Under the pieces are notes generated by a model. It searched no databases, had not been told where the DNA came from, and saw only the letters and a list, made by a program, of their open reading frames with translations. From Chitinophagaceae bacterium (lineage in GTDB: Bacteria > Bacteroidota > Bacteroidia > Chitinophagales > Chitinophagaceae), in the NCBI GenBank assembly GCA_035545755.1, contig DASZXQ010000048.1, positions 5,542 to 69,541 of the forward strand: a stretch of 64,000 nt of DNA. The letters run 5' to 3'. A program made the position numbers and the translations under genes. This document shows positions 23,535-29,189 of the stretch, piece by piece (the stretch's first letter is position 1; each line of letters begins with the position of its first letter).

Positions 23535-25322
23535 ATGTACAGAACTCATACATGCGGTGAATTAAGGATCGCCGAGAAGGGCAAACAAGTTACGCTCTCC
23601 GGTTGGGTACAAACTATTCGGAAGTTCGGCGCAATCACTTTCGTTGATCTTCGTGACCGCTACGGTGTCACACAATTATTATTTGGCGAAAACCTGAACA
23701 AACAATTAGATGAAAATCCACTGGGCCGTGAATTTGTATTGCAGGCAACTGGCTTAGTTTCTGAAAGAAGTAATAAAAACCCGAACCTTCCGACAGGCGA
23801 TATCGAGATCAATGTTGATTCATTCAAAATCCTGAACAAATCCATTGTTCCCCCTTTCACCATCCAGGATGATACGGATGGCGGCGATGACCTTCGGATG
23901 AAGTACCGTTACCTTGATCTGAGAAGAAATATTGTCAAGAAAAATATTGAACTGCGCTATGCAGTGAATCGTGCCGCAAGAAATTACTTACACAACCATG
24001 GATTCATTGATATTGAAACACCGTTTCTCATCAAATCAACTCCTGAAGGAGCAAGAGATTTTGTGGTGCCTTCAAGAATGAACCCGGGACAATTTTATGC
24101 ATTGCCACAATCACCGCAAACGTTCAAGCAATTGCTGATGATCAGTGGATACGACCGGTATTACCAGATCGTAAAATGTTTTCGTGACGAAGACCTCAGG
24201 GCCGACCGCCAGCCGGAATTCACACAGATCGACTGTGAGATGAGTTTTGTAGAGCAGGAAGATATTCTGAACACTTTTGAAGGAATGGTAAAATCCATTT
24301 TCAAAGAAGTAAAAGGAATTGATTACAATGAAAAGTTATCCCGAATGAGTTGGGATGATGCCATGCGTTATTATGGGAATGACAAACCTGACATTCGTTT
24401 CGGTATGAAGCTGGTGGAATTAAAATCACTGTTTGCGGAAGAAGAAAGAAATGTTTTTAAAGAAGAAATTGAAGCCAGCGGATTCAAAGTATTCAATGAT
24501 GCTGAACTTGTGGGAGCCATTGCTGTTCCCGGCTGCAGCGAGTATACCAGGAAACAGACCGATGAATTGACAGAATGGGTAAAACGTCCGCAGATAGGTA
24601 TGGCTGGTTTAGCGTTTGTCAAATACAATAATGATGGATCGTTGAAAAGCTCCATTGACAAATTTTTCGATGAAAATAAATTAAGACTCTTAGTAGAAAA
24701 ATGCCAGGCAAAACCCGGTGATCTTCTTCTTATCCTTGCAGGAAAAGAAGAACGCACAAGAAAAGCTCTAAGTGAATTACGACTGGAAATGGGCGAACGT
24801 TTAGGTTTTCGAAAAGCAGATGAATTCAAATTGCTGTGGGTATTGGATTTCCCATTATTCGAATTCAGTGAAGAAGACAATCGTTGGGCCGCCCGTCATC
24901 ATCCATTCACTTCACCCAAACCCGATCAAATACATTTACTTGATGATCCCTCACAGTACGGAACTATCAAAGCCAATGCTTATGATATGGTGCTGAATGG
25001 AAATGAAATTGGCGGTGGTTCCATCAGAATTTTCCAAAGAGATGTGCAGGAAAAAATGTTTTCAGCTTTGGGCATGAGCAAGGAAGAAGCCTTACACAAA
25101 TTCGGGTTTCTCCTTGGCGCATTTGAATACGGTGCTCCTCCGCATGGTGGCATTGCTTTTGGCTTTGACCGTCTTTGTGCTATTCTCGGCGGCAGTGAAA
25201 GCATCCGTGATTTTATTGCCTTTCCTAAAAACAATGCAGGGAGAGATGTGATGCTGGATGCTCCTTCAACCATTGATGATAAACAGTTGGATGAATTGCA
25301 GATAAAATTGGATTTGAAATAA
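23535..25322 (+). CDS. aspS: aspartate--tRNA ligase
   Basis: 595 aa. Class II aaRS motifs ([30 protein letters not shown]). Confidence 0.95.
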
Positions 25323-25356
25323 TCATAAACGGTTTTCAACTCGTAATTAAAATGAA

Positions 25357-25385
25357 AAATGCGAAGCCTGCCACTTCGCATTTTT
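25357..25385 (+). terminator. rho-independent terminator after aspS
   Basis: AAATGCGAAG-cctgcca-CTTCGCATTT perfect 10-bp stem followed by a T-run. Confidence 0.8.
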
Positions 25386-25474
25386 ATGCCATTAAATCTC
25401 GTAACAGGGCATAAACATTCTTAAAGAGAATGTAAAATATTAATTTTTCATTTTACCATAACAAGGTTCTGACT

Positions 25475-25498
25475 TTGTAAATTTGTTTCTATTTACAA
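25475..25498. promoter_or_regulatory. perfect 8-bp inverted repeat overlapping a TAAATTTG -7 box upstream of the GH18 gene
   Basis: TTGTAAAT-ttgtttct-ATTTACAA. TAAATTTG at 25478-25485 lies 29 nt upstream of the ATG at 25514. Confidence 0.3.
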
Positions 25499-25513
25499 AA
25501 TGAATTTTCCCCA

Positions 25514-26569
25514 ATGAAAAAAATTATTCAATTCCTGTTCCTGTTCCCGTTGGCGTTAAGCGTAACGGCGCAAGTAGTATCAGAAAATCTTTTTTACATG
25601 GTGGATACTCCGGAGTCATTTGCAAGTTTCAAAACTAATCTCAGCCAGATCTCCATAGTTTGTCCCCAGACTTTCCAGATAAGCAAGGAAGGAGTGATCT
25701 CCGGGTCGGTAGATCACCGCATATTGGAATTGGCAAGAGCAAATAAAATAAAAGTGATGCCGCTGATTGTGAACAGTGGTTTCACTGCACAGTTGTTACA
25801 TACTATTCTCAGCAATCCGCTGGCAAGAAAACGTTCGATCAAAATGATGCTCGAATATGGCAAGAAATATAAATTAGATGGCTGGCAATTCGACCTCGAA
25901 GGATTGAACATTTCCGATAGAGACAATTACACTTCCTATTTCAAAGAAACCGCTGATGCATTGCATAAAGCAGGGCTGCAATTGTCAGCAGCGTTGGTTC
26001 ATGCGGTTGAAAATGTTGGCGGGCCTACACCTTATCATAGTTTTCTCTATGAAAATTGGAGAGCAGGTTACGATTTTAAAGAATTAGCGGCAGCCGGAGA
26101 TTTTTTATCTATCATGGCGTATGACCAACACACCCGTCGCACACCACCGGGTCCAGTAGCCGGCGCTGATTGGGTGGAGCGTATCGTCCAATACCTGATC
26201 AATGAAGGAGTGGCACCGGAAAAAATATCGCTAGGGGTTCCTGATTATTCCATGCACTGGTTTCCTGATTACACAGAAGAAAAAGGTGGTTTTTCAAATG
26301 GCCAGCAGATCGGTTATAAAGTCGTAGAACATCTTTTGGCAAAATACAATGCAGAACTGATGTGGAATGAAAAAGCAGGATGCCATTATACTTTCTGGGA
26401 TAATGATGGCGTGTATGAGTACATGTATATCGAGGACGGAGCATCGCTGAAACCCAAACTGGATATTGTAGCAACATACAAACTCAGGGGAATTTCTGTA
26501 TGGGTGCTGGGAAAAGAAGCGCCGGATTTCTGGACTACATTGCAACAGCAAACAACTGTAAAAAAATAA
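25514..26569 (+). CDS. secreted glycoside hydrolase family 18 protein
   Basis: Signal peptide. LDGWQFDLEG matches the GH18 DxxDxDxE catalytic motif. Confidence 0.85.
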   Translation: MKKIIQFLFLFPLALSVTAQVVSENLFYMVDTPESFASFKTNLSQISIVCPQTFQISKEGVISGSVDHRILELARANKIKVMPLIVNSGFTAQLLHTILSNPLARKRSIKMMLEYGKKYKLDGWQFDLEGLNISDRDNYTSYFKETADALHKAGLQLSAALVHAVENVGGPTPYHSFLYENWRAGYDFKELAAAGDFLSIMAYDQHTRRTPPGPVAGADWVERIVQYLINEGVAPEKISLGVPDYSMHWFPDYTEEKGGFSNGQQIGYKVVEHLLAKYNAELMWNEKAGCHYTFWDNDGVYEYMYIEDGASLKPKLDIVATYKLRGISVWVLGKEAPDFWTTLQQQTTVKK

Positions 26570-26593
26570 AATCATGTTGGCCGACAGACCTTA

Positions 26594-27565
26594 TTATCCA
26601 CCTTTGACTGCCTTTGAAATAAGCCAAACATTCAAAACAATGTAAGCTACCAGGATCACCTGAGCCATAATCAGGTCAAATTGGCGAGCTTTCGAAGCTT
26701 TATTATTTTTAACGAGTTTCAATGAATACGCATTGGCGGCGATCACAGAAAAAATAAAGAACAATGTGATACCATGCAGTAGATCTACCAATGTAAAAGA
26801 AGAGGATTCCGGCAGCGAAGAATCAATAATATACTTATTGCCGATCACTGCAAACAATGCACCAACGCTCAAACCGAACCGGGAATCAATGCCATCAATG
26901 TGAATGTAAAAGCAAACATAAGCGATCAGGAAAGCGATAAACATTCCCAAAAACATTTTCCAGAATAATCCGCTGGCGTCACGTTTTATATCCAGCCTTA
27001 CCCGGAAATTACTGTACTCGGTGTGAGGTTTAGAAAGTGTTTCATCACCGAATGCAGTTTCGTAGGCTTTTGTGCCCGTTTGGATGACACAACTGTCAAT
27101 TGTCCACCCGCTGAGCGTGAAGCGAGGATCGAAATGTTCGCCGATTGTATCAGGTACAAAGATCAGCGACCTTGAGTCGTATTGTGAATTCTCGATGGAA
27201 AGACGCAGTTTTTGCTCATCAAAAGGAAAATTCCGGATCCTCCAGGAATCTTTCATTACACACTGCAGTTTCATGGTCATAAATATTCTTCCACCCGAAC
27301 TGTCTACCGTGAAAAAAGATTTATTGACGGTTTTTGCCATCGGTACTTCCAGGTTATTGGAAAAATCGAAATCCTTGTTTTTGTATTTCAACCACAACCA
27401 AAACGTAATGGTGTACTCCTTTTGTTTGAAATCTATATCATGTATGCTTATAATATAGATCCCGACCTTAACCGTATCCGGCTTTACATCCTGTGCAAGG
27501 GAATTATTGCTGAAAAAAAAGACAGAAAAAATAAAACTGATAGCATAAGCCAAATATCTTTTCAC
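26594..27565 (-). CDS. pentameric ligand-gated ion channel (Cys-loop receptor family) homologue
   Basis: Beta-rich N-terminal domain with VKVGIYIISIHDIDFKQKEYTITFWLWL and FPFDEQKLRLSIE (Cys-less Cys-loop signature), followed by four TM helices with an LPESSSFTLVDLL M2-M3 motif. Start placed at GTG 27565 (MKRYLAYAISFIFSVFFFSNNSLAQ signal peptide). The ORF is open to GTG 27637. Confidence 0.6.
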   Translation of the reverse strand: MKRYLAYAISFIFSVFFFSNNSLAQDVKPDTVKVGIYIISIHDIDFKQKEYTITFWLWLKYKNKDFDFSNNLEVPMAKTVNKSFFTVDSSGGRIFMTMKLQCVMKDSWRIRNFPFDEQKLRLSIENSQYDSRSLIFVPDTIGEHFDPRFTLSGWTIDSCVIQTGTKAYETAFGDETLSKPHTEYSNFRVRLDIKRDASGLFWKMFLGMFIAFLIAYVCFYIHIDGIDSRFGLSVGALFAVIGNKYIIDSSLPESSSFTLVDLLHGITLFFIFSVIAANAYSLKLVKNNKASKARQFDLIMAQVILVAYIVLNVWLISKAVKGG

Positions 27566-27656
27566 CGAATTACAATTTTGATCAGGAAAGATAGAGAACC
27601 CGGGATGAAAAACCAAACTCAGAAAAGCTTTAACCACACATTATTATTCAAATTTA

Positions 27657-28112
27657 TTATAACATATTTCTGCTTTCAATATCCCTGATCTTGTCCAATC
27701 GCCGCTGATGCCTCGGCTCATGACTGAATGTTGCTGTCAAAAAAGTTAAAACGATCTCCCTTGCCAGTTCAATGCCAATAACCCTCTGACCTATACATAA
27801 CACATTCACATCATCATGCTCTACACACTGATGTGCGGAATACGTATCATGGCAAACACCTGCCCGAATGCCTTTGAATTTATTTGCTGCTACAGACACG
27901 CCTACCCCACTACCGCAAATAAGAATGCCTTTCTCTGCAGCACCACTTAAAATTGCTTTGGCTATATGCTCAGCATGATCGGGGTAATCATCTGCTGTTT
28001 CACCGGAATAGGTTCCGAGATCGATGAACTCATATACATTATCCCGGATATTCTGTAATAAGATATTCTTGTATTCAAAACCGGCATGATCACACGCAAT
28101 TACTACTTTCAT
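27657..28112 (-). CDS. rpiB: ribose 5-phosphate isomerase B
   Basis: 151 aa. MKVVIACDHAGFEYK N-terminus and GILICGSGVGVSVAANK motif of the RpiB/LacAB family. Confidence 0.9.
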   Translation of the reverse strand: MKVVIACDHAGFEYKNILLQNIRDNVYEFIDLGTYSGETADDYPDHAEHIAKAILSGAAEKGILICGSGVGVSVAANKFKGIRAGVCHDTYSAHQCVEHDDVNVLCIGQRVIGIELAREIVLTFLTATFSHEPRHQRRLDKIRDIESRNML

Positions 28113-28130
28113 AATGTTATTTTTAAAAAC

Positions 28131-28403
28131 TCATTTGCCTCTGACAACTTTTTCTTTTGCCTCAGCGGAAGTGATCACAGGTATGATCTCAAAATCAACC
28201 ATATCATTCCAGTTAGCTATCCATTGTTGCAGGTTCTCCATCGAATCGCTTTCCATTACCTGGTAGCAAACAGTTATTTCTTCATTGATCCAGCTATGGA
28301 TATAGCGAACACCCTCCGGCAACATTCTTCCTTTTTCTGCAAAACGGTCATATAAATCCCTGACTTTCCCTTCGCGGTATTTCTCAATAACCATGTAAAG
28401 CAT
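28131..28403 (-). CDS. small conserved protein (DUF3303-like)
   Basis: 90 aa. The pattern MVIEKYREG..LYDRFAEKGRMLPEGV.YI.SW resembles my recollection of DUF3303. No search was run. Confidence 0.55.
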   Translation of the reverse strand: MLYMVIEKYREGKVRDLYDRFAEKGRMLPEGVRYIHSWINEEITVCYQVMESDSMENLQQWIANWNDMVDFEIIPVITSAEAKEKVVRGK

Positions 28404-28410
28404 GACTATT

Positions 28411-29046
28411 TTATTTTTTTGAAAAATTACTTTTATAATACCCGCAAACTTTTTTCATCAGGCATTTTTCGCAAAAAGGTTTTGGACGGCATATCTCTCT
28501 GCCCAGGAATGAGATTGCCATGCCAGCGTCCCAATCTTTTTGAGGAAGCGTTTCCATAATCTGTTTTTCGATTTTTTTAGGATCAGTTCCTGTTGCAATT
28601 CCAAGCCTCGGCGCTACACGAACCACGTGAAGATCCACGATCACACCTTGGGCTGGCTTACCGGCTTCCCGTAAGATAACATTTGCAGACTTTCTCCCAA
28701 TACCTTTTAATTCTGTGAGCTCATTTAATGTGAGAGGAATATTTTTATTATCCCTTATTTTCTGTGCCATACTCACAAGCCATTCTGCTTTAACGGCGAA
28801 ATTGCGTACTGATCCAATAAACGGATAGAGCCCTTCAGCGGTTGCTTTTGACAGGGCCTTCATATCCGGATAGGCTTCGAATAATTTCGGCGCCAGTTGA
28901 TTGATATGCTTGTCGGAATCCTGTGCGGAAAGCATAACCATTACGATCAACTGGTAAACGTTTTTATACTCCAACGGATGCTTTTTGTCCTTGTATTTTT
29001 TCAGCAATGGCTGAATGGCTTTGGTCCAATCCGTTTTAGCAGGCAT
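28411..29046 (-). CDS. nth: endonuclease III
   Basis: HhH-GPD motif (LTELKGIGRKSANVIL) and C-terminal 4Fe-4S cluster Cys ligands (CRPKPFCEKCLMKKVC). Start moved to the ATG at 29046 (MPAKTDW). Confidence 0.9.
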   Translation of the reverse strand: MPAKTDWTKAIQPLLKKYKDKKHPLEYKNVYQLIVMVMLSAQDSDKHINQLAPKLFEAYPDMKALSKATAEGLYPFIGSVRNFAVKAEWLVSMAQKIRDNKNIPLTLNELTELKGIGRKSANVILREAGKPAQGVIVDLHVVRVAPRLGIATGTDPKKIEKQIMETLPQKDWDAGMAISFLGREICRPKPFCEKCLMKKVCGYYKSNFSKK

Positions 29047-29189
29047 AGAAAAGATTTGAGAATTAAATCTACAATAAAATAGTGGACGCATTTCAAGCCA
29101 CGCCAACAGAATTTTAATTGAATACTTCAGATAAAACGCTAAAATTCATACATTGGAAGCCAATAACCGACCGCAACTGCCATTGATCC

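Follow-up and report, generated by a model that had tools for sequence, protein, structure and literature searches.

[quoted passage not shown] The inventory was later widened by Jaiteh et al., who coined the name Pro-loop receptors (PMC4795631). One of the three C. hutchinsonii homologues has the same simple layout, a ligand-binding domain followed by four transmembrane helices, as the gene considered here, while the other two carry MCP-N/Cache fusions that are absent here; the organism belongs to a different order, and the likeness is one of architecture (PMC549065). In the portions of the literature available to us, the characterised prokaryotic models that recur are GLIC, ELIC, sTeLIC and DeCLIC, and none from Bacteroidota was found there.

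We analysed a window of 64,000 nt from a Chitinophagaceae bacterium (GCA_035545755.1, contig DASZXQ010000048.1, 5,542-69,541 forward), in which an earlier note, made from the sequence alone, had described one gene as an uncharacterised homologue of the Cys-loop receptors. The gene is confirmed to be a prokaryotic pLGIC that lacks the Cys-loop cysteines, and it proves to be an ordinary, though unannotated, member of a known superfamily.

The gene and its family

Within the maximal open frame (26594..27637, minus strand), which amounts to 347 aa counted from its GTG, the true start of the channel gene most likely lies at GTG 27565. This gives a product of 323 aa (Table 1), and was chosen because the majority of homologues in the databases have been called with a length of about 322-323 aa and because this GTG and the MKRY codons are conserved in two aligned sister loci. 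A start at GTG 27637 was rejected, as that codon is not conserved in the sister loci and the homologues are mostly of about 323 aa; the extension would also bury the signal peptide. Predicted cleavage between SLA and QD would expose a glutamine, which fits the Bacteroidetes Q-rule, according to which signal peptidase I substrates expose Gln after cleavage (PMC5837995).

Of the two Pfam families that the earlier note had proposed as an hmmscan check, one gave a significant match and the other did not. The protein passes Neur_chan_LBD (PF02931), scoring 34.9 bits where the gathering threshold is 26, but Neur_chan_memb (PF02932) has no match in it at E<=1, and the homology of the transmembrane domain rests on two NCBIfam models, on sequence matches in the PDB and on the fold search described below. 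The Neur_chan_memb model consists mainly of animal sequences with long M3-M4 loops, and the other evidence for the transmembrane domain outweighs the miss. Both NCBIfam models, TIGR00860 (LIC; 3.3e-18) and NF033918 (LGIC_1; 8.6e-14), match the stretch that runs from the Pro-loop to M4, albeit far under their curated cut-offs (65.6 vs 280.2 bits and 51.6 vs 500 bits, respectively). These sub-cut-off scores probably explain why the homologues are called "hypothetical protein" in every named database record examined. A phmmer search of the PDB found a GLIC-GlyR chimera at 6e-14, as well as GlyR, GLIC and GABA-A chains, with alignments that cover M1-M4.

For a more sensitive comparison we used a subfamily alignment of 103 diverse sequences, which reaches down to relatives of about 27% identity and is the basis of all conservation counts given below. 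Its profile matches GLIC residues 12-311 at E~1e-28, and the best 60 profile matches are all GLIC or GLIC chimeras; ELIC, sTeLIC and DeCLIC, which have the superfamily and membrane topology in common with the channel protein, are not among them. The score above the Neur_chan_LBD gathering threshold, the GLIC profile match and the fold match thus all agree in making the protein a homologue of the Cys-loop receptors. The description as uncharacterised holds too, since GLIC is only about 18% identical and the protein is without a characterised close relative.

Table 1. Features of the channel gene and its surroundings (window coordinates; residues in 323-aa numbering)
Feature	Coordinates	Strand	Basis or remark
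pLGIC (Pro-loop receptor) subunit, 323 aa	26594..27565	-	GTG start; TAA at 26594-26596
Upstream in-frame extension, 24 codons	27566..27637	-	from GTG 27637; probably untranslated
Sec signal peptide, residues 1-24, MKRYLAYAISFIFSVFFFSNNSLA then QD	27494..27565	-	read from sequence; model helix 2-17
Periplasmic ligand-binding domain, residues 25-195, beta-sandwich	26981..27493	-	PF02931, AF2 strands, subfamily conservation
Pro-loop core F113-P114-F115-D116, Cys-loop equivalent without cysteines	27218..27229	-	alignment
M1 helix, residues 197-220	26906..26977	-	AF2 model
M2 pore helix, residues 226-248	26822..26890	-	AF2 model; register from GlyR alignment
M3 helix, residues 259-286; D261 in at least 90% of subfamily	26708..26791	-	AF2 model, alignment
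M4 helix, residues 290-322, after 3-residue M3-M4 loop	26600..26698	-	AF2 model
Intergenic block TTTG-N20-TATCTTTC	27586..27617	-	conserved in three loci; resembles Bacteroidota -33/-7 promoter
rpiB, upstream neighbour	27657..28112	-	PF02502 4.5e-54
DUF3303 gene	28131..28403	-	PF11746 4.7e-28
nth-like HhH-GPD glycosylase	28411..29106	-	TIGR01083 2.5e-43, under curated cut-off

Predicted fold and the periplasmic domain

The AlphaFold2 (AF2) monomer model, computed with the 103-sequence alignment, has a pLDDT of 95.6 and a pTM of 0.84, and shows eight long strands followed by four helices, the beta-sandwich plus four-helix arrangement that a pLGIC requires. Foldseek matches it to GLIC, GlyR, GluCl and GABA-A at TM 0.77-0.80 over 311-331 columns, with 16-18% identity. 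Most of what had been said of the protein from its sequence is recovered in this model and in the 323-aa frame: the Sec signal peptide, four transmembrane helices with a short M3-M4 loop, and the beta1-beta2 pattern, the FPFDxQ signature without cysteines and the M2-M3 motif. The frame contains VKVGIYIISIHDIDFKQKEYTITFWLWL, which falls on strands beta1-beta2 of the model (30-45, 50-61), and the other quoted motifs, FPFDEQKLRLSIE and LPESSSFTLVDLL, are likewise present. The beta-rich domain was rightly recognised, but it spans about 171 aa rather than the roughly 200 proposed.

The hallmarks of the superfamily are strongly conserved among the relatives. P114 is the sole invariant column (103/103), D116 is kept in 99 of the 103 sequences, in accordance with the [FY]-P-x-D pattern, and the pre-M1 arginine R195 in 102. 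The disulfide pair of the Cys-loop is absent, with D106 and L120 standing at the places of its cysteines, eight residues before P114 and six beyond it, and the only cysteines of the periplasmic domain (C102 and C159) lie away from the Pro-loop flanks. W56, conserved in the subfamily, occupies the loop D position equivalent to GLIC F42, and in loop C the subfamily conserves Y168, T170, F/Y172, G173, D174 and Y/F184; W58, E73, K78, D130, D139 and W154 are also conserved elsewhere in the domain.

The closest match among known channels is GLIC, the proton-gated channel of Gloeobacter violaceus (PDB ID: 3eam). It too has a signal peptide and a beta-sandwich without an N-terminal helix, and a Pro-loop without cysteines, four transmembrane helices and a minimal M3-M4 loop are common to both; the two superpose at TM 0.75-0.80, yet are only some 18% identical. 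However, about 21 residues that follow beta2 in GLIC, near loop A, are missing here, and loop C is longer here, so that the orthosteric pocket may be built differently, given these missing residues. DeCLIC has extra N-terminal domains that the channel protein is without. The animal Cys-loop receptors (GlyR, GABA-A, GluCl, nAChR) are alike in full-length fold (TM 0.78-0.79; 16-18% identity), but their Cys-loop disulfide, N-terminal helix and long M3-M4 cytoplasmic domain are all absent here.

The pore and a proposed gating mechanism

The register of M2 was taken from a gapless alignment to GlyR, from R0' to P23'. The pore positions are D227 (-2'), S228 (-1'), R229 (0'), G231 (2'), G235 (6') and F238 (9'), followed in the outer part by G242 (13'), Y245 (16') and D248 (19'), with P252 (23') just past the helix in the M2-M3 loop. 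F238 (9') is conserved in 100 of the 103 subfamily sequences, R229 (0') in 95, P252 (23') in 93, G6' in 92 and Y16' in 88, while D or E is found at -2' in 72 and at 19' in 78. When the registers are counted back from P23', D227 matches the position of the -2' glutamate in M2 of GLIC, which is the GLIC selectivity filter, and an acidic residue at -2' is thus common to both channels. The remainder of the lining differs, with F9', G6' and Y16' here against I9', S6' and I16' in GLIC (the GLIC side read from the alignment). Across pLGICs as a whole, Phe accounts for 13% of 9' residues and Leu for 75% (PMC4795631). Taken from the sequence, the pore points to a cation-selective channel with a Phe gate.

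A pore selecting anions instead of cations is unlikely. It would agree with the conserved R0', with K244 at 15' and with the -1' proline adjoining R0' in 46 of the 103 relatives, which loosely resembles the anionic P-A-R motif, and both selectivities were expected among prokaryotic members by Tasneem et al. (PMC549065). However, in the protein itself -2' is D and -1' is S rather than P-A, the acidic -2' and 19' rings are the majority state of the subfamily, and R0' occurs in cationic channels as well, with 79% R/K overall (PMC4795631).

Returning to the cation-selective pore, we consider it very probable that the product of this gene is the subunit of a homopentameric ion channel, ligand-gated and of the pLGIC/Pro-loop superfamily, and that the gene works as a stand-alone unit. 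A homopentamer is expected because the genome holds a single channel gene, the other copy found belonging to a sister population (see below). Five copies would assemble in the cytoplasmic membrane with their ligand-binding domains facing the periplasm, where a small solute would bind at the subunit interfaces beneath loop C. The pocket would be lined by the subfamily-conserved aromatic residues W56, Y168, F172 and Y184 together with the acidic E73, D130 and D174. Binding would be relayed via the beta1-beta2 loop, the Pro-loop, the pre-M1 R195 and the M2-M3 loop to the ring of F238 (9'), which would act as a hydrophobic gate and open, while the acidic rings of D227 (-2') and D248 (19') would confer cation selectivity. 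Opening would depolarise the cell or let in Na+, K+ or H+, and in this way the channel would signal rapidly, either in chemosensing or in ionic homeostasis.

By analogy, our favoured functional model is ELIC, a cation channel gated by amines and constricted by bulky hydrophobic residues at 9' and 16', though at such a distance its ligand would not be transferable. At low confidence, we would guess from the composition of the putative pocket that the ligand is cationic or an amine, as for ELIC.

It could also be that the channel has no organic agonist, and is gated mainly by pH or by divalent cations, as GLIC is by acid, sTeLIC by alkaline conditions and DeCLIC by Ca2+ depletion. Such gating holds for three of the four prokaryotic pLGICs characterised, according to the literature available to us, and GLIC is the top match both by sequence and by profile. 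The residues concerned argue against the idea, however. GLIC E35, the principal proton sensor of that channel, aligns with K49 here and with N, K, Q or R across the subfamily, and two further proton-sensor residues, E26 and H11', are replaced by S40 and V240, so none of the three is conserved at its aligned position. GLIC-type proton gating is thus not supported by residue conservation. Moreover, identity with GLIC is only about 18%, and the well-conserved aromatic and acidic set of loops C and D argues for a common small-molecule site, which makes gating mainly by pH or divalent cations improbable, if still worth a minor share of belief.

Very improbable, lastly, is that the protein is a decayed or non-conducting relic, plugged for good by, for instance, its Phe 9' and Tyr 16' rings: the lining of G2', G6', F9', G13' and Y16' is certainly odd, but the pore motif is retained in 88-100 of 103 diverse sequences, dN/dS is about 0.05, no locus examined has a broken frame except for two profile matches of the phylum survey, each with one internal TAA, and ELIC conducts despite its own bulky 9' and 16' rings.

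Gene context, distribution and meaning

The channel gene had been placed at the end of a string of nth, DUF3303 and rpiB genes. In the window the string is indeed co-directional with the gaps described (7 nt between nth and DUF3303, 18 nt between DUF3303 and rpiB, and 19 or 91 nt between rpiB and the channel for starts at GTG 27637 or GTG 27565), but the adjacency is kept only at the genus level. The nth-like gene itself probably starts at ATG 29046, for a product of 211 aa. On the other side, a GH18 gene is convergent on the channel 3' end, with 24 nt separating the stop codons. No GC anomaly or mobile element was seen at the locus.

We searched for the window neighbours by tblastn at 11 genus-level loci and at the best 80 of 505 loci obtained by a pattern scan of species-representative genomes, for which a 13-sequence alignment was used. 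Among these best 80, rpiB lies upstream of the channel in five, all with channels at least 79% identical to that of the window, nth lies near it in six and DUF3303 in five. When three genes on each side were clustered at the best 80 of the 505 loci, no neighbour family recurred beyond 6/80. In other genera the Pfam families found next to the channel include metallo-beta-lactamase, SWIB, urocanase, urate oxidase with amidohydrolase, polysaccharide deacetylase and others. That the channel and the three genes form a single operon with a common role in physiology is therefore hardly credible: the small gaps and common direction in the window, the string retained in the nearest relatives (79-92% identity) and the nth gene immediately upstream in Terrimonas amount to the residual synteny expected among close relatives, whereas the neighbours differ in almost every genus and the 91-nt spacer carries a conserved promoter-like block. 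We rejected the operon on these grounds, and the string reads as local gene order without a functional signal.

The TTTG-N20-TATCTTTC block in this spacer is a weak candidate for a promoter serving the channel gene alone. It is conserved in the three loci, unlike the sequence right after the rpiB stop, but the two-box Bacteroidota promoter pattern is not enriched, and the motif scan by itself is not significant. A second candidate for a -7 box, TAAATTTG directly past the rpiB stop, was rejected, being unconserved in the sister loci and of a frequency at chance level.

A search of the genome with the profile found only the window gene and a copy on a 3.5-kb contig (C41). Gene order on the latter follows that of the window from DUF3303 to aspS, with 82-86% nucleotide identity, and this collinearity, which includes aspS, led us to reject a paralogue in favour of a co-binned sister population. 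Among the three copies compared, dN/dS is 0.05-0.08, with dS near saturation, and the channel gene is under strong purifying selection; the protein shows roughly the degree of conservation that aspS has at these loci, and is 70-89% identical between genera of the Chitinophagaceae.

The gene is patchy in occurrence: of the 61 genera sampled for this family 11 carry it, and in a survey of the phylum it was present in 18/301 genomes and 13/144 genera. The best 80 of the 505 loci are nearly all labelled as Chitinophagaceae or related Bacteroidota, and include cultured strains of Flavisolibacter, Ginsengibacter, Hanamia, Terrimonas, Niastella and Flavihumibacter. At E<=1e-3 an exhaustive search of representative sequences gave 2,864 clusters (50% identity), of which 312 remain at E<=1e-30.

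Bacteroidota pLGICs were already reported in 2004 from Cytophaga, and a chemosensory role is an inference that was already made then (PMC549065). The locus has no fused or operonic sensor partner, its gene context holds no clue to a ligand, and in these respects it offers no advantage over many other bacterial pLGIC loci.

The protein and its relatives could form a distinct, large and uncharacterised pLGIC subfamily that shares one new agonist or physiological role, marked by a compact periplasmic domain (short of about 21 residues past beta2), a near-invariant pore motif and a conserved loop C. The pore motif is R-F-G-L-x-V-G-A-L-F-A-x-x-G-N-K-Y, with G6', F9' and Y16', and the loop C motif is Y-x-T-x-[FY]-G-D. 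We regard a subfamily with one shared agonist as quite doubtful; if true, it would mean that in Chitinophagaceae a chemical stimulus is turned directly into an electrical input acting on the proton-motive force. Several hundred Chitinophagaceae genes now called "hypothetical protein" become annotatable as pLGIC subunits, and a compact, highly conserved subfamily with an unusual Gly/Phe/Tyr pore lining could add a structural model beside GLIC, ELIC, sTeLIC and DeCLIC. Orthologues are carried by cultured organisms, for instance Flavisolibacter ginsengisoli DSM 18119, Niastella yeongjuensis DSM 17621, Hanamia caeni and Terrimonas pollutisoli, and these offer a route into the function of bacterial pLGICs.

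The periplasmic domain and its cysteine pair

The channel has a compact periplasmic domain: GLIC, the proton-gated pLGIC of Gloeobacter violaceus, carries ~21 residues after beta2, ahead of the loop A region, and the whole subfamily is without them. At the corresponding site, the AlphaFold2 monomer model of the channel contains nothing but a short helix, residues 68-71. The same domain holds two cysteines, C102 and C159, which are kept as a pair in 120/120 close homologues, and the two positions are mostly Ala/Phe in the wider subfamily. Judged by these sequence comparisons, the pair is clade-specific. The two residues may form a disulfide that spans the beta-sandwich at a site other than that of the animal Cys-loop.

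Coordinates of the features discussed
Feature	Location	Strand	Remark
Site of the gap relative to GLIC	channel residues 62-76; window 26594-27565	-	
C102 and C159	channel; window 26594-27565	-	
TTTG-N20-TATCTTTC block	window 27586-27617	-	20 nt upstream of GTG 27565
nth-like ORF	window 28411-29106	-	231 aa if read from TTG 29106
Contig C41	L014, 1-3517		collinear with window 24879-28418
PF06983 gene	L029, 4902-5390	+	between DUF3303 and rpiB
Tandem pLGIC paralogues	L018, 5019-5999 and 6106-7068	-	in G026

Upstream block and neighbouring genes

The TTTG-N20-TATCTTTC block, a candidate promoter of the Bacteroidota type by its sequence, is kept in three loci, and the stretch directly past the rpiB stop is not. 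Further upstream, the nth-like gene probably starts at ATG 29046 (MPAKTDW..., 211 aa), because its relatives are called at 208-211 aa with the same first residues. The closest complete relative (88% identical) has an additional 3-demethylubiquinone-9 3-methyltransferase-like gene (PF06983) between DUF3303 and rpiB, and the local gene string therefore differs even among close relatives.

Further copies of the channel

A 3.5 kb contig of the same assembly, C41, repeats the gene order of the window (DUF3303-rpiB-pLGIC-GH18-aspS), and its channel is 88% identical to that of the window at the amino acid level. Duplication is disfavoured as its origin by the collinearity of the contig and a nucleotide identity of 82-86%; C41 looks like a sister population co-binned into the assembly, whose bin contamination is 3.94%. 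A genome from another genus of Chitinophagaceae (G026) has two pLGIC paralogues in tandem; they share 67% and 62% identity with the channel and might form heteromers.
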